Positions 2,704-52,883 of a stretch of DNA of 64,000 bases are shown here, one piece after another. The position numbers and the translations under genes were made by a program. Under the pieces are notes generated by a model. The model was not told the origin of the DNA. It ran no database searches and was given only the letters and a program-made list of their open reading frames with translations. Numbering within the stretch: the first letter of the stretch is position 1; every line of letters begins with the position of its first letter. The DNA is from a virus (Duplodnaviria; Caudoviricetes), in IMG/VR virus record IMGVR_UViG_3300021979_000004, positions 32,001-96,000 of that record; one strand, written 5' to 3'.

Positions 2704-2916
2704 ATGTCTAGGAAAGTACATGCCGAAATTGAATATGTAGATCAACATGGTAACAAAATTCATTCAGACATCTGCCCGAGGAATTGTGATAGCTCCAATC
2801 TCTCAGATAAAGAGTATCGTCAGTTCTTACATGATTGCCTTGATGAGTGGTTAGATAAGTCTGAAGGATCATGTGGATTTTACATCAAAGATGAAAACTA
2901 TGAGTTCGATCATTAA
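2704..2916 (+). CDS. hypothetical protein
   Basis: ATG 2704 with GAGG RBS, in the frame of track ORF 2668..2916. Confidence 0.7.
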   Translation: MSRKVHAEIEYVDQHGNKIHSDICPRNCDSSNLSDKEYRQFLHDCLDEWLDKSEGSCGFYIKDENYEFDH

Positions 2917-2942
2917 GTAATAAAAAAAGTTTGAAAAAGTTA

Positions 2943-3007
2943 TTGACGAACCATAAATAACTCATTATAATGGTTCCATAAATTAAGGAAACGTTCTTTA
3001 AAAACTG
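2943..3007 (+). promoter_or_regulatory. sigma70 promoter plus boxA-like antitermination site for the tRNA operon
   Basis: TTGACG-17-TATAAT; CGTTCTTTAAAAACTG at 2992-3007. Confidence 0.8.
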
Positions 3008-3024
3008 ATAGAATATTTTTATTT

Positions 3025-3110
3025 GGAGAGGTTCCCGAGCGGTCAAAGGGATCAGACTGTAAATCTGACGCGAACATGCTTCGGAGGTTCGAATCCTCCC
3101 CTCTCCACCA
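3025..3110 (+). tRNA. trnY: tRNA-Tyr (GUA)
   Basis: Full cloverleaf, long variable arm, anticodon loop CT-GTA-AA, TTCGAAT T-loop, encoded CCA. Confidence 0.97.
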
Positions 3111-3127
3111 AATTTATTGGAGTTAAT

Positions 3128-3250
3128 ATGAACTGGAAATGTTTTATCCTTGGTCACAAGAAAGTTTTGCAAACCGGTGGCGACCCTAATGGTTCAAAGC
3201 CAGAATGCTTACATAGATGTGAACGCTGTGGTGAAATATTAATCAGTTAA
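3128..3250 (+). CDS. small Cys/His-rich protein (MNWKCFILGH...CERCG)
   Basis: ATG 3128 with GGAG RBS; zinc-ribbon-like residues. Confidence 0.65.
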   Translation: MNWKCFILGHKKVLQTGGDPNGSKPECLHRCERCGEILIS

Positions 3251-3261
3251 TATTAATTCCT

Positions 3262-3368
3262 TGACTTATAGCAATCTAGGGTTCGACGCTCTAGTGGAGG
3301 CTTAAAAACGCCTTGACTGCGGCCTATAGCCCAATACGCTATTCAATTGTTGAAATTGCTATAAGTCA
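3262..3368 (+). ncRNA. structured RNA closed by a 14-bp stem, with a T-loop-like hairpin
   Basis: TGACTTATAGCAAT/ATTGCTATAAGTCA; CTAGGGTTCGACGCTCTAG hairpin. Confidence 0.55.
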
Positions 3369-3377
3369 TTTTATTAT

Positions 3378-3452
3378 CGCGGGGTAGAGCAGTCTGGTAA
3401 GCTCGTCTGGCTCATAACCAGAAGGTCGGGGGTTCAAATCCCTCTCCCGCAA
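3378..3452 (+). tRNA. trnM: tRNA-Met (CAU), initiator-type; CCA not encoded
   Basis: CGCGGGG start with C1:A72 mismatch, anticodon loop CT-CAT-AA, TTCAAAT T-loop. Confidence 0.9.
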
Positions 3453-3465
3453 ATTCAGGGGTAAT

Positions 3466-3951
3466 ATGAAAATAACAACATTAGAAGATATAAAGTCTAG
3501 ATTACTAGGCAAGATTGAAATCAATAATGAGTGTTGGGAGTGGCAAGGTGCTACAAACAATCACGGTTATGGCACTATGAAGATCACAAACCTACAGGGT
3601 AGTGATGAAGGAAGAAAAACATGTTATGTTCACAGAATGTCATACCTGTGTCATAATAATGAATTGCCAAGTGATCAGCTTGTTTGTCATACTTGCGACA
3701 ATCCTATTTGTATTAACCCCGACCACTTATTTTTAGGATCAAATCAGGATAATATGAATGATATGAAATCTAAAAATAGGCAGGGAACTAATAACACCAT
3801 TCATTATGGGAATAACCATGCTGGAAAGAAAGTTATAGCTGATGGAATTGAATATAAATCATTTTCAGAAGCTGGACGTGCATTAGGTGTTTCTTGTACA
3901 ATGATTCGTAAAAGAGTCAAGAATGGTGTAAAAGGCTATAAAAAGCTTTAA
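3466..3951 (+). CDS. HNH homing endonuclease (I-HmuI/Mob-like, C-terminal DNA-binding tail)
   Basis: CWEW..YG..VHRMSY..VCHTCDNPICINPDHL..GSNQDNMND motif. Confidence 0.92.
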   Translation: MKITTLEDIKSRLLGKIEINNECWEWQGATNNHGYGTMKITNLQGSDEGRKTCYVHRMSYLCHNNELPSDQLVCHTCDNPICINPDHLFLGSNQDNMNDMKSKNRQGTNNTIHYGNNHAGKKVIADGIEYKSFSEAGRALGVSCTMIRKRVKNGVKGYKKL

Positions 3952-3980
3952 CGTAGATCGTGTGTCTGCATAAAACAAAA

Positions 3981-4247
3981 TTCCATTCAATTGCTAACGT
4001 GGTGTTCACCTTAGTTAACATTGGAAGTGTTAGTAGGCACCATCTTTTAGCTTAGGTTTCTGGGACGCTTGCATTTTATAGATAAAATAGTAGGCCATCC
4101 CCATACTAAGCTGCGAATCCGAAGTACCGTTGACCAAACGTTTTAAAGAAAAATAGTAGTCATCAAACGTCATATCGGAAACGCTAGGCTATGTCCTGAC
4201 TCGTGCGAACCATACTAGATTTGGCAATCAGAGCGATTAGGATGGAG
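3981..4247 (+). ncRNA. ~270-nt multi-stem structured RNA, unknown
   Basis: No ORF; nested stems 3993-4051 capped by a GGAA tetraloop; TCCATT/GATGGA and TTGCTA/TGGCAA long-range pairs. Confidence 0.45.
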
Positions 4248-4302
4248 GTTAATAAAATTTGACAAGAATATCTCTAGCTAAAAAAAGTTTTTCTCAAAGT
4301 GC

Positions 4303-4368
4303 TTGACACTGAATTCGAATGACCTTATAATGGTTACAGAAGTTGAGGAAAACGCTCTTTAAAAACTG
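4303..4368 (+). promoter_or_regulatory. sigma70 promoter plus boxA-like site driving the ncRNA cassette
   Basis: TTGACA-17-TATAAT; CGCTCTTTAAAAACTG at 4353-4368. Confidence 0.85.
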
Positions 4369-4371
4369 AAT

Positions 4372-5281
4372 AGCTTTGGTACTCGCTTGACCGTCCCGAT
4401 AGTAAGAGCAAAGGTCATAAATCATTGCCACCAAAGCTTTTTGCCCATAGGCTTACTCACCTATGTTACAGGCGCGGTAACCAATCCGAAGAGTAAGAGT
4501 TACGAGAGTATATAGGCATGGTCCTTTTTCATCATGTGAAATTCCTATCAAGTAAGGGTCATGACCTATATACTCTCAACGACCGATGGCACCCTTGGAC
4601 TAGCTCATCCATGTTACAGGTGCGGTATCCAGCCCGAAGAGCTACCGAATTTTCTAACCAAGGTTTGGCGTAATATGGCCTTGGTTCTAAAAACCACAAG
4701 TGTCTGTTTTTTCCTCCTTTGTCGGACACGCTACCAGTGGGTACAGGGGATAGAGGTTCACCCTGAAGTGGGTATACAGGACAAATATTTAGTTTCTGTC
4801 TCCGGTCCTGTATACCTAAACTTATTTGCCGAAAACCTGTAGACGGTTCTTTGCAGTTGTCCGTCAATAACCGCAGGGTAAGGGGTATTGTGGTTCACCC
4901 CAAATGTTTTGCCTAATGGGTTGTAAATAATATAATTACAATACATTAAGAAGTAGAGGTGAGGTTATGTATACAGGTCATTCCTGTGTGTAGGTTGAAC
5001 TCCTGCTAACCAACACCCTCTGCGACAAGTTTATAACCATGGGAATAAGACCTCTGCAAGCAAGTCCATCTGTGAAATCTCGTAGGAGAAGCGACGGTGA
5101 GGAACCTACGGAAGTGAGTAACATACATGGTTAAAGTTTTGTGCATATGGGTTTGAATTGTTTTTAAAACTTTAAATATCTAATCTAATTTCTCCATTAG
5201 GTTTCCATATGCACAATTTATTATGTACCTGACCGATCCTCTTGGTGCCCTCCGTCTCAGCATAACCAATGGTCAGGTACA
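4372..5281 (+). ncRNA. cassette of back-to-back structured RNA modules (one large ncRNA or an sRNA array)
   Basis: Perfect 9-13-bp stems at 4372-4438, 4504-4577, 4771-4816, 5139-5216 and 5224-5281; no credible ORF. Confidence 0.65.
4453..4644 (+). repeat. two copies of a 44-nt structured motif (4453-4496 and 4601-4644)
   Basis: Core AyCyATGTTACAGGyGCGGTAwCCAryCCGAA; closing stems TTACTC/GAGTAA vs TAGCTC/GAGCTA (compensatory changes). Confidence 0.8.
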
Positions 5282-5289
5282 GTTTTTAT

Positions 5290-5431
5290 GCGTCGTAGGA
5301 CTGCCGGAATTGGACTACAGTCATCAATGGTCTTCTTCTGGGGTGTCTGAACGTTTATAGTGATTAGAGATAGATGACTCAATACTCAACTCATTATAAA
5401 CCTCCCTGTTCGACTCGGGGGCGACGAGCCA
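5290..5431 (+). ncRNA. 142-nt tRNA-like RNA with CCA end and oversized central arms
   Basis: CGTCGT/GCGACG acceptor, GACTG/CAGTC D-like stem, CCCTG-TTCGACT-CGGGG T-arm, 11-bp extra arm, 3' GCCA. Confidence 0.6.
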
Positions 5432-5437
5432 ACTTCA

Positions 5438-5507
5438 AGTCGGGTAGCTCAGATGAATAGAGCGCGTCACTGATAAGGACGAGGCCGGTAGTCACTACCC
5501 CCGAATT
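5438..5507 (+). pseudogene. degenerate tRNA-Ile (GAU) with 3-nt T-loop
   Basis: TAGCTCAG..TAGAGC D-arm, anticodon loop CT-GAT-AA, T-stem GGTAG/CTACC with loop TCA, no CCA. Confidence 0.7.
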
Positions 5508-5517
5508 AAAAAATTAT

Positions 5518-5594
5518 GGTGCTGTTGCTTGCTGATCACAAGTAGGGAATATACTGATCTAGACAGGAGTGGGTTCGAATCCCATCCAGTGCCA
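5518..5594 (+). pseudogene. degenerate tRNA-like element
   Basis: GGTGCTG/CAGTGCC acceptor, GTGGG-TTCGAAT-CCCAT T-arm, non-canonical D and anticodon regions. Confidence 0.5.
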
Positions 5595-5598
5595 ACCG

Positions 5599-6312
5599 AA
5601 TTGAGTATGAATATCTATTGGTTTTGATATTTTCTTATTGTATCGATATGTTTATATGCTAGGTTTATAAAATAGTCAGAAGAAATGCCTATGTTAGAAA
5701 CGAATTCTTTTTCTGAAATTTCTTCATCAGTATCATCATAAAGGGTTGATCCTATATCATCGAACCGAATAGCATATTTATTTTTATCACTGAATACATA
5801 AATTAAAACGAATTTGTCTTTTTTAAAATATTCATTCCAATCATCAGGTGAGTATGATGAAGTGCACCATTTTGTTGATCTTCCATAGTACTTGCTAGCT
5901 GAATGATTAAGAGGCACAATTGCGAATAAATTGCCATTATTATATAAAATTATTTTATTAGATTTCTCTTTCTTTTTTTGTTGACGATTAGATTCTTTAT
6001 GTCGGTTCTTATCAACATAATCAACGAATGAATTCCATCCTTCCTTTACCCAATAGGATATATCCTTATGATCTATGAGTTGTTTTTGGGATAATTTTTT
6101 AAATGTTTCTATATAATCTTTAACTAAAGACTCGTCATTATTTTTAGAAAATATCCTATAAGCATCTTTGTAAGACTCAAATAATATTAAATCTGTTATT
6201 TTCATCATATAATCCTTGATTATTATCTAATGTATGATACTATTTATTTAAGAGAGAACCTTTCAAACCTAGATAATAACAGGGCTAGGCTCTCAAAAAA
6301 TTGAGTATGAAT
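5599..6312. repeat. 14-bp direct repeat AATTGAGTATGAAT at 5599-5612 and 6299-6312
   Basis: Exact duplication bracketing the inverted gene. Confidence 0.85.
5615..6208 (-). CDS. late protein with MKITDLILFE N-terminus and ASKYYGRSTKWCTS motif (PcfJ-like WC domain, tentative)
   Basis: 197-aa ORF; upstream TAAATA on the minus strand (6241-6250); flanked by a 14-bp direct repeat. Confidence 0.8.
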   Translation of the reverse strand: MMKITDLILFESYKDAYRIFSKNNDESLVKDYIETFKKLSQKQLIDHKDISYWVKEGWNSFVDYVDKNRHKESNRQQKKKEKSNKIILYNNGNLFAIVPLNHSASKYYGRSTKWCTSSYSPDDWNEYFKKDKFVLIYVFSDKNKYAIRFDDIGSTLYDDTDEEISEKEFVSNIGISSDYFINLAYKHIDTIRKYQNQ

Positions 6313-6408
6313 GTAACCGAAACTGCTATCGGAAGTGCGAGTGTACATAAGCTGCCAATGTATATGTAGTGGGGATCGTTACATCAGCCCTGAGAAGGCC
6401 ATACTCAA
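6301..6408 (+). ncRNA. ~108-nt multi-branch structured RNA, unknown
   Basis: TTGAGTATG/CATACTCAA, ATGTAAC/GTTACAT, CCGA/TCGG and TGTACAT/ATGTATA stems. Confidence 0.6.
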
Positions 6409-39553: not shown

Positions 39554-39578
39554 ATGTTATAGATTTATAGGAGTGATC

Positions 39579-39908
39579 ATGAAATCTAATGAGAAGTATG
39601 AAATCTTAACGCCCACAGGATGGAAAGATTTTACAGGCGTTGAATATACTGGAATGAAACAAACATTGAAGATTACCTTAGATTCGGGTAAAGATATTGT
39701 ATGCACCCCAGAGCATAAACTGAAAGTTAATGACAAATATCTTACCGCAGAAAAGATTAAAGTTGGAGACACGATATCATCTGTGTCTTCGGATGTCCAT
39801 AAAGTAACTTCAATAACTGAACATGGAACATCTGCCTGCTATGATTTGGTAAATGTAGAAAATGATGATCACTCTTTTGTAATTCAAAATGATTTAATAT
39901 CTAGTAAC
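39579..39908 (+). mobile_element. C-fragment (110 aa) of an atypically split intein
   Basis: Starts at Met without block A; has block B (IVCTPEHKL), block F (CYDLVNV) and block G ..SSN|C. Confidence 0.82.
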
Positions 39909-41663
39909 TGCGATGAGCTTGCATTCGTTAACAAACGTATTGCTCTCGAATTCTGGACCTCTGTATTCCCCACTCTTTCCTGTGTAACTTACGATACTAT
40001 TATCCTGACTAAAGATGGTTTCATGAGAATTGGAGACGTTTTCAAAGATGTTGATTATAAACCGGGAGACTATTTCACCTTAGATAATTTCGAAGTATGG
40101 GGTAAGTATGGATTTGAAAAAGTATCACATGGTTATATCTCACCAAGTTCCGAAACTGTCATTGTTAGTCTGAAGAATGGACAGTCAGTTGAAGTAACAA
40201 AAGACCATCCATTGTTTGCTAACCGTAATGGTGGTGAAATGGTTCGTGCTGAAGATTTAAAAGTTGGTGATAAACTACGCGTAGATAAAGGCATGATGGT
40301 CGATTTCGGTGGGTTTACAGATTTCAAATGTTTAATTGAAACGGCACACGAAAATCCTGAAATAATACTTAATATGAGCTTCGAATGTTTCAAAAACCTT
40401 ATAGATTTCTTAGACTATAAAATTTATTGCGACAATCAACAAATGATGAATTGCTTTACGCAGGTTCTTAATAACTATGGGTATAATTATGAGTGTAAAG
40501 TTACTACGTTACACGTAAAAGAATGTGTTAGACAATATCGAACTGAATGGGTTGATATCGAATATATTTCCCAAGGCTGTACTAAAGTAACTTATGACTT
40601 TACGGTTCCTGCAACAAAAAGCTTTTTACAAAATGGTATTCTGGGTAGTAACACTGGCGGTTCATGTATTATCACTTCCACACCTACGGACGATGAAACT
40701 CTATTCGCTGACATATGGAAGAAAGCCAATGAAACTATGGATGAGTTCGGTAACACCACTGAGGTAGGTAGTAATGGTTTCAAAGCACTAAAAGTAAAGT
40801 GGGATGAACACCCTGATCGCGGTGAAGAATTCAAAGATTTAATGATTAAGCAGTTTGGTGAAGAGAAATTCAGACGTGAACATGAACTTGATTTCGTTGC
40901 AGAAGATGAAACCCTAATATCACCATTGTACTTGAGTGAAATGAAACACCAAGAACCTATAAAGAAAACAGGTCAGGTAAGATGGTATAAAAAGCTTGAT
41001 CGCAATAAAGTTTATTTTATAGGCTATGATCCAAGTCTAGGTACTGGTGGCGATAACTCTGCTATTCAAATATTTGAATTTCCAAGTATGGAACAAGTAG
41101 GTGAGTGGATGCATAATAAATCTGACGTTCCTACACAATTAAAAGTGTTGAAAAATATACTTAAAATGTTCGAGGATGCCGGTTTCGAAGAAGACAATGT
41201 ACGTTGGACTCTCGAAAATAATTCCATTGGTGAAGCACCATTGGTTCTTATTGAAGAATATGGTGAAGACGAATTCTTTGGATACTTCATGAGCGAACCA
41301 TACAATCCACGTCAACCTAGAGCGCGTTCTAGATTCAGAAAAGGGTTCAATACCAGCAACAGTAGTAAGCTTACTGCGTGTACTCGTTTCAAGCGTTGGG
41401 TTGAGAATGATAAGATGTTAATACATAGTAAGCCTATGATTAAAGAACTAAAAGGTTTCGTATCTCGTGGTAGAACATATAAAGCACGTGCTGGTGATAA
41501 CGATGACTTGGTTATGGCTACACTTCTATGTGTGAGGATGGCTATGATTACTATGCAGGAAGAAGATGAGTATATGGATGCGCTTGGTGTAGGCAATGAG
41601 ATAGATGACACTGAAAGTGATGACGATAGTGATTGGGATCAGCCATTGCCGGTTGTATTTTAA
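39579..41663 (+). CDS. terL: terminase large subunit, C-terminal part (Walker B to nuclease domain), with split-intein C-fragment and a cis intein
   Basis: CDELAFV Walker B, IITSTP motif III, IGYDPSLG / LENNSIG / NDDLVMA RNase H-like nuclease motifs; no Walker A in the ORF. Confidence 0.9.
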   Translation: MKSNEKYEILTPTGWKDFTGVEYTGMKQTLKITLDSGKDIVCTPEHKLKVNDKYLTAEKIKVGDTISSVSSDVHKVTSITEHGTSACYDLVNVENDDHSFVIQNDLISSNCDELAFVNKRIALEFWTSVFPTLSCVTYDTIILTKDGFMRIGDVFKDVDYKPGDYFTLDNFEVWGKYGFEKVSHGYISPSSETVIVSLKNGQSVEVTKDHPLFANRNGGEMVRAEDLKVGDKLRVDKGMMVDFGGFTDFKCLIETAHENPEIILNMSFECFKNLIDFLDYKIYCDNQQMMNCFTQVLNNYGYNYECKVTTLHVKECVRQYRTEWVDIEYISQGCTKVTYDFTVPATKSFLQNGILGSNTGGSCIITSTPTDDETLFADIWKKANETMDEFGNTTEVGSNGFKALKVKWDEHPDRGEEFKDLMIKQFGEEKFRREHELDFVAEDETLISPLYLSEMKHQEPIKKTGQVRWYKKLDRNKVYFIGYDPSLGTGGDNSAIQIFEFPSMEQVGEWMHNKSDVPTQLKVLKNILKMFEDAGFEEDNVRWTLENNSIGEAPLVLIEEYGEDEFFGYFMSEPYNPRQPRARSRFRKGFNTSNSSKLTACTRFKRWVENDKMLIHSKPMIKELKGFVSRGRTYKARAGDNDDLVMATLLCVRMAMITMQEEDEYMDALGVGNEIDDTESDDDSDWDQPLPVVF
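39981..40652 (+). mobile_element. cis intein (224 aa) with degenerate endonuclease region
   Basis: CVTYDTIILTKDG block A, VTKDHPLF block B, TYDFTV..NGILGSN|T. Confidence 0.9.
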
Positions 41664-51518: not shown

Positions 51519-52883
51519 TTACGCGGCTAGTTCTCTTATTTCATCGAAGGTTTGACGACGCTTAATCACACCATCTTCATACACTACTTCAAGTAGGTTG
51601 GAATCACCAGCAAAACTCTCTGGGACTGTCTTGTAGCCTTCATCCACATCTGGGACTAGTGCTAACCTACCTTTCTTAGAAGTCTTACCAGCGTCGGTCA
51701 CAGGGTCTTTAAAGACGTTTCGACCCTCGCCATTGACTTCGATGTAAGAGCATTTCATAGCGAACTTCTGAGTGTCACGGTTGTGGTCTTGTAGAAGTTT
51801 ACCACCCATACCGAATACAACATTCTCAACAGACCATCCGTTAGTTTTTAGGTTCTCGCAGATTCTACGGATCATTTCGATATCGATACCGTCACCCTGT
51901 AGAACACGAACCTTATCATTTAGAACTTTGTATCCTTTGGTATTCTTATAAGAACCAAACTTCTCATCTAGAGCGGTGATAACATCATAAACAACTTCAA
52001 TCGGATTGCCACTATCAGGACGAACTACTAACACACCGTCACGCTTTAGAATTTTATCTTTAAGCTTCTCACCAAAGATGTTGCTAACTGCATTGTAAAT
52101 GTCATAGCTATCTGCAACGATAGATAGAATACCAGTTGGGTTTTCATCAATTAGTTTCTCGTATGCAGCCGCTTCACCATCTTTACCGTGGGAGGTGATT
52201 GTGCTGTGTTCTGCCGCAACAACACTGTAAGCGCACACGTTAGAATCGTAGTAGCGCATAGCTGTTAGAATACCTTCCATAGTATCTGTACCGCTGAAGT
52301 TGATAAGGTGCGCTGCACCACCAATACCAGCAGTGGTATCAGAAGAAGCACCACGATAGCCGAAATCATGTAGTTTGAATGGTAGGCTATCGGTATTATC
52401 AGATGTTAGTTCTAGATATTTTTTAATAATTTTCTTGCATTCTTTACTGTAAGTTGCTACAGTAGATGCATACCATACGGCAGAAAGTAGACGTGGCTCT
52501 AAGAAAGATGGTAGCCAGTAAAATTCTGGTAGGGTATTTTCAATAACAGCAAGTACGTTTTTGACAGGTAGTACCATACCTTCTTTTACAGCACTGATCT
52601 TAATAGGTAGGTAGCCTAACTCAACGAGTGCTTTAGCACCTTCGTAGTTAAATGGTACGCCGTGTAGCTCAGTGAATGTTTTAGCTTCTTCAACATCCGC
52701 CATGGTTGGAAAATTGTCATTGATATCTTGAATAGCTTTCTGTAGGCCGAAGAATAATACTTCGTCAAACTTGCCGCCACGGCTTTCAATGTAAGAATAT
52801 ACTTTAGTAGTACCAGTTGGGTACTGGCTGAAGTGGGATAGTTTGTAGGAATCTGTTTTTAGAAAAAAGTTATTATAGTTCAT
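51519..52883 (-). CDS. nadV: nicotinamide phosphoribosyltransferase (NAMPT)
   Basis: TDSYKLSH, LHDFGYRG, AAEHS, VVRPDSG, QGDG, FGMGGKLLQ, KDPVTD.GK.SKKG motifs. Confidence 0.95.
   Translation of the reverse strand: MNYNNFFLKTDSYKLSHFSQYPTGTTKVYSYIESRGGKFDEVLFFGLQKAIQDINDNFPTMADVEEAKTFTELHGVPFNYEGAKALVELGYLPIKISAVKEGMVLPVKNVLAVIENTLPEFYWLPSFLEPRLLSAVWYASTVATYSKECKKIIKKYLELTSDNTDSLPFKLHDFGYRGASSDTTAGIGGAAHLINFSGTDTMEGILTAMRYYDSNVCAYSVVAAEHSTITSHGKDGEAAAYEKLIDENPTGILSIVADSYDIYNAVSNIFGEKLKDKILKRDGVLVVRPDSGNPIEVVYDVITALDEKFGSYKNTKGYKVLNDKVRVLQGDGIDIEMIRRICENLKTNGWSVENVVFGMGGKLLQDHNRDTQKFAMKCSYIEVNGEGRNVFKDPVTDAGKTSKKGRLALVPDVDEGYKTVPESFAGDSNLLEVVYEDGVIKRRQTFDEIRELAA

Follow-up and report, generated by a model that had tools for sequence, protein, structure and literature searches.

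Some phages encode stable RNAs other than tRNAs within their tRNA gene clusters. Phage T4 makes two of these, species 1 (rnaC, 139 nt) and species 2 (rnaD, 119 nt), and comparable passenger RNAs are present in the tRNA clusters of Karamvirus phages; to our knowledge, the function of the stable RNAs of the T4 tRNA cluster is still open after fifty years. The large RNAs GOLLD and ROOL also occur among phage tRNA genes. Here, we describe an RNA cassette in a 64,000-nt stretch of phage DNA (the window), which comprises bases 32001 to 96000 of a 217,982-bp virus record (IMG/VR record IMGVR_UViG_3300021979_000004; 35.5% GC, 18 tRNA genes, estimated completeness 73%). All positions are those of the window unless a contig is named. 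The segment from 4303 to 5597 is probably a dedicated stable-RNA operon of an uncultured jumbo phage, in which transcription would be modified through a boxA site and the transcript processed into a series of small RNAs.

The cassette occupies a gene-free gap (3952-5614), bordered on the left by an HNH endonuclease gene (3466-3951), itself located 3′ of the genes for tRNA-Tyr and tRNA-Met, and on the right by a convergent gene encoding a 197-aa protein (5615-6208). The unit begins with a promoter and a boxA, followed by about 1.25 kb lacking coding potential. An earlier note on this DNA, made from its sequence alone, had placed the borders at 4303 and 5431; the start agrees with our analysis, but the unit continues past the proposed end to about 5597. 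The note had also seen no credible open reading frame (ORF) in the stretch, and codon usage bears this out: all of the ORFs inside it (42 to 102 aa) have negative scores (-0.13 to -0.39), scores of neighboring genes lie mostly between +0.1 and +0.4 (the lowest being +0.06), and a PHROG search with the internal ORFs gave no match at E ≤ 1. Its impression that the region is richer in GC than its surroundings is likewise correct, with 42.8% GC compared with 35.5% for the genome, which ranks at the 99th percentile among windows of equal size. Between the HNH gene and the promoter, a further 350 nt (3952-4302) are similarly noncoding; AAAATAGTAG is present twice within them, together with a GGAGG that has no usable start codon.

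The promoter, which the note had recognized, is of the sigma70 type (TTGACA-17-TATAAT; 4303-4331, plus strand), matches the consensus at 12 of 12 positions, and has the highest score within 2800-6400. It is preceded by an A-rich tract resembling an UP element (4278-4302, plus strand), which may act as one; the same A7-GTTT tract stands ahead of both consensus promoters (4303 and 2943), the second being a paralogous promoter (2943-2971; 11 of 12 matches) in front of tRNA-Tyr. Early in the untranslated transcript, 22 nt 3′ of the -10 hexamer, is an rrn-type boxA of the GCUCUUUAA type, so that the boxA proposed earlier is also confirmed: the 13-nt site at 4353-4365 (plus strand) holds a 12-mer that blastn finds to be identical to the boxA in the 16S-23S spacer of Escherichia coli rrnH. 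The leader (4331-4369) is 85% identical to 2971-3008, and A-rich tract, promoter, leader, and boxA recur as a unit (2923-3008) at the head of the tRNA-Tyr/tRNA-Met operon. We note that between these two tRNA genes there is a 40-codon ORF (3129-3251) with GGAG 5′ of it, whose predicted peptide has a zinc-ribbon-like CxxH...CxxC arrangement.

The boxA pattern is present four times in the 218-kb genome, compared with 0.31 expected, and three of the four copies are in stable-RNA contexts; the third copy is inside a minus-strand tRNA cluster. The signal is also not peculiar to this genome, because a promoter and boxA leader are found in an unrelated IMG/VR phage contig (L060; 54.5 kb, 29 tRNAs), in which a 19-nt boxA leader word identical to that of the window lies inside a tRNA array. 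At L060:4420-4510, this word follows a TTGACA-17-TAGAAT promoter and is immediately 5′ of a tRNA-Leu(UAA) gene. Beyond the tRNA-Leu(UAA) gene of L060 is a 256-nt spacer of non-tRNA sequence, which a long helix closes. In bacteria, boxA recruits NusB/NusE and other Nus factors. The Nus complex at boxA can prevent Rho-dependent termination and promotes RNA folding, in a context-dependent manner (Baniulyte et al. 2017, PMC5725501).

The earlier note had left a choice between a single large noncoding RNA and a processed array of RNAs. Of these the array fits better, because module 1 of the cassette is found by itself at about 30 other loci, two module pairs arose by tandem duplication, the predicted domains all close locally, and the last three modules are tRNA-derived, one having an encoded CCA. 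The alternative, one ornate RNA of 1.1 to 1.25 kb like GOLLD, ROOL, or OLE, acting as a single molecule or a multimer, would account for a stretch that is large, GC-rich, ORF-free, and densely paired and that lies among phage tRNA genes as do GOLLD and ROOL. We nonetheless consider it unlikely. Complementarities beyond 200 nt amount to only four arms of 9 to 11 nt, and the autonomy of module 1, the tandem duplicates, and the CCA-type tRNA-like ends all point to separate units. The note could place the region in no known family by eye, and Rfam 15 agrees, giving no GOLLD, ROOL, or other large-RNA match for 4335-5300. Across the window, no family reaches its gathering score within 4335-5300, and relaxed searches (E ≤ 5 over 10 kb; E ≤ 10 over 966 nt) returned only generic microRNA-hairpin matches of 14 to 22 bits. 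A remnant of an rRNA operon was also considered and rejected, in that blastn against the E. coli rrnH operon matched only the boxA and a tRNA-Ile-like arm.

Module 1 (4372-4438, plus strand), a 67-nt element that we refer to as motif A, consists of a closing stem (P1), a helix (P2), and a probable pseudoknot (P3), with four U residues following at 4439-4442. When the whole gap was compared by blastn with 50,697 phage records, only 4377-4433 was matched, at approximately 90% identity, in unannotated DNA of Rhodococcus phages Francesca and Dorin and of three Sulfitobacter phages; the Francesca copy is 94% identical to that of the window over 49 nt. Exact-word scans of IMG/VR and JGI metagenomes brought the family to 30 distinct sequences (alignment A1) with lengths of 66 to 73 nt. 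All of the searches of public collections required exact core words, so that divergent members were missed and the invariance of the searched words is partly imposed by the search; conservation outside these words, at the 5′ junction and in the 3′ linker, is not imposed in this way.

The 30 copies have 49 to 51 bases between the strands of P1, of which about 40 are invariant or nearly so, and the window copy departs from the consensus at variable positions only; covariance model R1, in which the window copy was included, scores it at 89.2 bits. The P1 stem (usually 6 to 13 bp) has no sequence common to the copies, yet 92% of its cells pair. Eight of the nine aligned pairs have changed on both sides, and none of 500 shuffles reaches the observed values. 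In the window P1 has nine Watson-Crick pairs, and the family conserves GG/CC at its inner end. RNAalifold recovers both P1 and the 4-bp P2 unaided, and P2 is invariant except for one C-to-U change that preserves a wobble pair. For P3 (columns 37-40 with 56-59), 99% of the cells pair, with little variation, and its 3′ bases could also take part in a rival 4-bp pairing. Covariation is seen at one pair, which is A-U in 24 copies, G-C in five from two lineages, and C-C in one, and another pair is G-U twice. It is likely but not proven that P3 forms an H-type pseudoknot.

Motif A lies in a tRNA array at approximately 20 of the 30 loci, and P1 starts 0 to 9 nt 3′ of a tRNA end at nine loci or more; in Francesca, tRNA-Lys starts 1 to 2 nt after P1. 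Because motif A abuts tRNAs, it would be released by the enzymes that mature its neighbors. Other copies are free-standing with a U run after P1, as in the window; the genome to which the window belongs has a single copy of the motif as judged with model R1. In the Sulfitobacter-type temperate phages, motif A is in a 500-nt gap 5′ of the terminase genes. No common gene lies downstream of it among the loci compared, and it is therefore not a cis-regulator of one gene family. The RNA can be assigned to the tRNA strand because of U-G pairs at the inner end of P1.

These features bear on whether the cassette might instead function as DNA, for example as a replication origin or as a packaging or recombination region whose palindromes would serve as DNA hairpins or as sites for protein binding, the promoter providing transcriptional activation. 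The many perfect Watson-Crick palindromes in an ORF-free region are compatible with such a role, as is the position of motif A just 5′ of the terminase genes in the Sulfitobacter-type phages, which is a frequent location for cos or pac sites. However, the U-G pairs of P1 would be A-C mismatches on the other strand, and motif A is always on the tRNA strand. Several modules of the cassette fold much better as plus-strand RNA (4950-5026, 5290-5431, and 5518-5597), iterons and an AT-rich unwinding region are both absent, the stretch being GC-rich instead, and the GC skew has no turning point here. A DNA-level role thus seems very improbable.

Motif A has no family match in Rfam, and its core was scanned for twice in genomes of 185,579 bacterial and archaeal species (one genome each), with no exact match. 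A literature search by sequence string found no paper with the core; a catalogue of about 10,000 candidate viral structured RNAs (PMC10690425) lies outside this comparison. Mimicry of rRNA was considered for motif A, and model R1 finds nothing in E. coli rrnH or in the T4 tRNA region. Antisense action was tried also, and duplex energies of the core with E. coli 16S, 23S, and 5S rRNA and three tRNAs fall within the shuffle distribution. With no mimicry of E. coli rRNA evident by either covariance model or antisense pairing, the label of decoy, which the earlier note applied to the RNAs of an array, is a guess. Two further observations concern motif A. First, about 140 nt upstream of the copy in a short metagenome contig with tRNAs (L023), ARAGORN calls a transfer-messenger RNA (tmRNA)-like element with an 18-residue tag ending in FAA. 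Second, the 3′ end of the first copy of the duplicated motif B described below (4485-4499) matches 12 of 15 bases of the invariant center of motif A (4394-4408), the common part ending in GUAAGAG; this resemblance may be due to chance or may be a trace of common origin.

The phages carrying motif A infect Actinobacteria, Alphaproteobacteria, and low-GC hosts. A near-invariant core together with a diverged stem is typical of ribozyme or aptamer cores and not of host-specific regulators. Because about 40 core bases are nearly invariant across these host groups beside a fully diverged closing stem, we tentatively entertain the idea, without favoring it, that motif A represents a new functional RNA class whose activity is intrinsic or whose target is universal. 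Candidates are a small ribozyme that cleaves or processes itself and trims the tRNA transcripts of the phage, an aptamer for a universal metabolite or an immune signaling nucleotide, and a binder of RNA polymerase or the ribosome. If so, the cassette would be a phage toolkit of such RNAs, expressed through a hijacked rRNA-type mode of transcription. Strong conservation across distant hosts implies a target or a chemistry common to all bacteria, and identifying it could uncover a new phage strategy for tRNA processing, translation, or defense; because motif A is present in cultured Rhodococcus and Sulfitobacter phages, it is a concrete and testable object.

A further comparison for motif A is with the put RNA of phage HK022, which has two stem-loops and acts in cis in processive antitermination. 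The two are similar in size (about 65 to 70 nt), and motif A heads long untranslated or late units in the window, in contigs L011 and L029, and in the Sulfitobacter phages 5′ of the terminase genes; by analogy, RNA polymerase as a universal target could explain the conservation of motif A across hosts. However, motif A is a stem-closed, probably pseudoknotted RNA in contrast to the two stem-loops of put, and many of its copies are in the middle of tRNA arrays with tRNAs abutting on both sides, for which a released small RNA is a better fit.

The modules downstream of motif A are dominated by hairpins with perfect bases. All five of the perfect stems listed in the earlier note (9 to 13 bp) are present: 4504-4516 with 4565-4577 (13 bp), 4771-4782 with 4805-4816 and 5139-5150 with 5205-5216 (12 bp each), 5224-5234 with 5271-5281 (11 bp), and P1 of motif A, 4372-4380 with 4430-4438 (9 bp). 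Perfect inverted repeats of 9 bp or longer number six in total, compared with 0.24 in shuffles, the highest count in the genome for windows of this size. The duplicated motif reported in the note is real, with 78% identity over 50 nt (84% over the best 38), and forms a direct repeat (D1; 4444-4493 and 4592-4641) with its copies 148 nt apart, but it is not the only one; a second motif is duplicated at 4739-4763 and 4876-4900 (D2; 137 nt apart, 80% identity). The hairpins that follow the repeats have an additional 12-mer in common.

In order along the plus strand, module 2 (4452-4497) is the first copy of the D1 motif, motif B, with a 7-bp closing stem around a conserved core. It is followed by a long hairpin (4504-4577) with 13 perfect pairs, a bulge, and more pairs including G-U (window z-score -4.3). 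Sites for RNase III take this form, and 4504-4577 may be a processing site of this type. Module 3 (4601-4644) is the second copy of motif B, 148 nt after the first. Next are a hairpin with 14-nt arms that are 86% complementary (4650-4692; I4) and a 7-bp hairpin (4700-4729) whose 16-nt loop contains CCUCC and which, from sequence and predicted fold, appears anti-Shine-Dalgarno-like. The first copy of the second duplicated motif (4739-4763) is a small hairpin with GGUUCA in its loop; it precedes a perfect 12-bp hairpin (4771-4816; I5), 13 bp with the flanking pair (window z-score -3.4), and the second copy (4876-4900). The 77-nt multihelix module at 4950-5026 has a minimum free energy (MFE) of -28.2 kcal/mol on the plus strand and -20.2 kcal/mol on the minus strand, and within it is the T-loop-like hairpin noticed earlier, a T-arm-like element at 4990-5006. 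Hairpins with perfect bases of 12 bp (5139-5216; I6) and 11 bp (5224-5281; I8) complete the middle of the cassette.

Each motif B copy has a closing stem of different sequence, and both of these stems pair. A motif B-like element is present in Sulfitobacter phage pCB2047-A (L002:3108-3160), approximately 85 nt 3′ of its motif A copy, and has in common with motif B the GUUAC and GGUGCGG segments, an 8-nt loop, and GA-GAG, with a closing stem of its own (CCAGA/UCUGG). In contig L008, related to pCB2047-A, the same B-like closing stem is present with its interior replaced by 5 nt. Other IMG/VR matches to the loose motif B pattern are chance-like and in coding DNA, and the co-occurrence of motif A and a B-like element in pCB2047-A is therefore unlikely to be due to chance; three examples, however, are too few to define a family. 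A pattern for the second duplicated motif found nothing in IMG/VR beyond chance-like coding matches.

Tandem arrays of structured units have been described in another phage setting, where UG27 reverse transcriptases adjoin noncoding RNA units of about 150 nt (149, 167, and 135 nt; bioRxiv 10.64898/2026.09.22.753630). Both are phage arrays of sequence-diverse structured units, those of UG27 being approximately 135 to 167 nt, and the 148- and 137-nt tandem units of the cassette, each with a small basal motif and a long hairpin, come close to the reported sizes. The idea that the cassette is a template array for a reverse transcriptase is nevertheless the most improbable of those considered here, because there is no RVT_1 match in the 218-kb record (estimated to be 73% complete) in a search that detects the family in control genomes, the architecture of the units differs between the two pairs, and the leader and the ends of the cassette are of tRNA type, which is not the context of the UG27 arrays.

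The cassette ends as the earlier note had supposed, in tRNA-like RNAs, of which there are three. The first (5290-5431, plus strand) is a 142-nt RNA whose 6-bp acceptor stem is extended by a first G:A pair. It also has two long arms and a T arm, its G-CCA end is encoded, and its MFE is -46.0 kcal/mol on the plus strand and -31.0 kcal/mol on the minus strand. In MFE folds it has the same arrangement as T4 rnaC, with a terminal stem, a long arm, and a second arm directly before a canonical T arm. The likeness (139 versus 142 nt, in a phage tRNA cluster) is one of form only, and membership in the rnaC family was rejected, since a model built from T4 and Karamvirus rnaC (R2) gives only a 4.5-bit partial match to the T arm (5404-5420). 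No T4-type record among the 50,697 phage records matches the stretch by blastn. In the Karamvirus phages, rnaC is located between tRNA-Trp and tRNA-Gly. We note that these rnaC homologues, at L056:301-441 (AS6), L057:301-440 (COW86c), and L058:301-439 (PG7), are unannotated or covered by an opposite-strand hypothetical protein, and in PG7 the RNA is labeled as a 95-nt tRNA-Met.

The second element (5438-5507, plus strand) is a derivative of tRNA-Ile(GAU) in which the D and anticodon arms are kept. It scores above the Rfam tRNA threshold (RF00005; 32.5 bits versus a gathering score of 29), and over the 49 nt of these two arms its identity with E. coli ileV is 80%. It has a 3-nt T loop in place of the canonical 7-nt loop, no GG in the D loop, and no CCA, and is not called by ARAGORN. 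Because it lacks the elbow loops, it is a tRNA derivative and not a standard tRNA. The third element (5518-5597, plus strand) has a 7-bp acceptor stem, a canonical T arm, and one long arm replacing the D and anticodon arms; its MFE is -24.0 kcal/mol (-17.4 kcal/mol on the minus strand), and neither ARAGORN nor Rfam calls it. A tmRNA or other tag RNA was also considered and rejected: ARAGORN makes no such call, and the short frames in 3952-5620 all lack a tail of the AA type.

That the tRNA-Ile-like element lacks the T loop and the D-loop GG while an intact tRNA-Ile(GAU) is kept elsewhere in the genome raises the question as to whether the cassette is largely in decay, consisting mostly of degenerating duplicated hairpins and pseudo-tRNAs that recombination has left behind in a plastic region beside a homing endonuclease gene, with only motif A and perhaps one tRNA-like RNA still functional. 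The HNH gene directly upstream is consistent with this, as is the ordinary folding of motif B and several other modules, and the middle modules have no homologue in the phage collections searched except for the possible motif B copy in pCB2047-A. However, the consensus promoter and the boxA are retained, and perfect stems of 11 to 13 bp, whose density here is the highest in the genome, would erode quickly without selection. Pairing is preserved in both motif B closing stems despite their different sequences, and the joint loss of the T loop and the D-loop GG, which are pairing partners in a tRNA, looks coordinated and not random. Decay on this scale is therefore unlikely, although we give it marginally more credit than a single large RNA.

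If the cassette is a stable-RNA operon, the near-consensus promoter would fire and produce a nascent leader with the rrn-type boxA, and the modified polymerase would then traverse 1.25 kb of untranslated, highly structured RNA, the modification also aiding its folding. An untranslated transcript of this length would require assistance of this kind. The primary transcript would comprise at least ten, and about a dozen, independently folding modules separated by spacers of 3 to 10 nt; when pairing spans are restricted to ≤150 nt, the predicted fold consists of domains that close locally, with short stretches between them. Of the host enzymes, RNase P and RNase Z would cut at the tRNA-like modules, and RNase III and RNase E at the long perfect hairpins and spacers, to give small stable RNAs of about 45 to 150 nt. 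Module 1 would be a free-standing RNA of approximately 67 nt, matured at other loci by the abutting tRNAs and ended here by its closing stem and U run. The middle modules would have arisen by local tandem duplication, and the last three would be tRNA derivatives stripped of decoding features. The RNAs would most likely act in trans, either on conserved host tRNA and translation machinery or on host systems that attack tRNAs.

Several observations weigh against such an operon. Nus factors may also promote Rho termination, according to context (Baniulyte et al. 2017, PMC5725501), and the effect of boxA in the cassette is thus not certain. The fold of motif B copy 1 is thermodynamically ordinary (z = -0.4), several modules fold no better than shuffles, with strong z-scores for the long hairpins only, and for the stretch as a whole the strand asymmetry of folding is small (-383 versus -361 kcal/mol). 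No relative with the whole cassette was found in the 50,697 phage records, with IMG/VR patterns, in neighbor-protein searches, or in Logan, and modules 2 to about 9 therefore have no covariation support; the homologue and covariation analysis suggested in the earlier note gave a positive answer for module 1, with its 30 copies and covarying P1, and not for the whole cassette. The single Logan contig found is 100% identical to the window, the one relative of an 853-aa neighbor protein is on a fragment that lacks the cassette region, and the adjacent 197-aa protein has no relatives. The record has no gene for Ro60/TROVE, RtcB, a CCA-adding enzyme, or RNase III, and because the last two are lacking, the phage would rely on its host for all processing. 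Finally, no terminator was found at the 3′ end, where the convergent gene starts at 5615.

Elsewhere in the window, the large terminase gene (39573-41663) contains an intein, with Intein_splicing and PT-HINT domains ahead of Terminase_6C, and a nicotinamide phosphoribosyltransferase (NAMPT) gene with NAMPT_N and NAPRTase domains is present at 51519-52883.

As a kind, stable non-tRNA RNAs in a phage tRNA region are already known; what is new, as far as checked, is the scale of the cassette, its drive by an rRNA-type promoter and boxA, and the motif A family. Its relation to the T4 RNAs is close in several respects, in that rnaC and rnaD are non-tRNA RNAs of about 120 to 140 nt among phage tRNA genes of the same strand and are also adjoined by a homing endonuclease gene. 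The window differs in having about ten more modules, a consensus promoter of its own, and a boxA, and T4 rnaC as annotated has no encoded CCA whereas the 142-nt RNA has one. The locus would thus be a much richer case of the T4-style tRNA-cluster RNAs, a whole operon with its own rRNA-style promoter and boxA. With GOLLD and ROOL it has in common a large, ORF-free, structure-dense region of the sort often found beside phage tRNA genes, but it is modular, with autonomous and duplicated units, no long-range architecture, and no Rfam match. The layout also recalls that of a bacterial rrn operon, with a strong promoter preceded by an A-rich tract, a boxA about 20 nt into the transcript, and then a long structured, untranslated RNA with a tRNA-Ile(GAU)-like element after it, although the cassette encodes no rRNA, has no detectable similarity to 16S, 23S, or 5S rRNA, and has no identified boxB or boxC. 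This resemblance suggests that phages borrow the host mode of rRNA transcription to make untranslated RNA.

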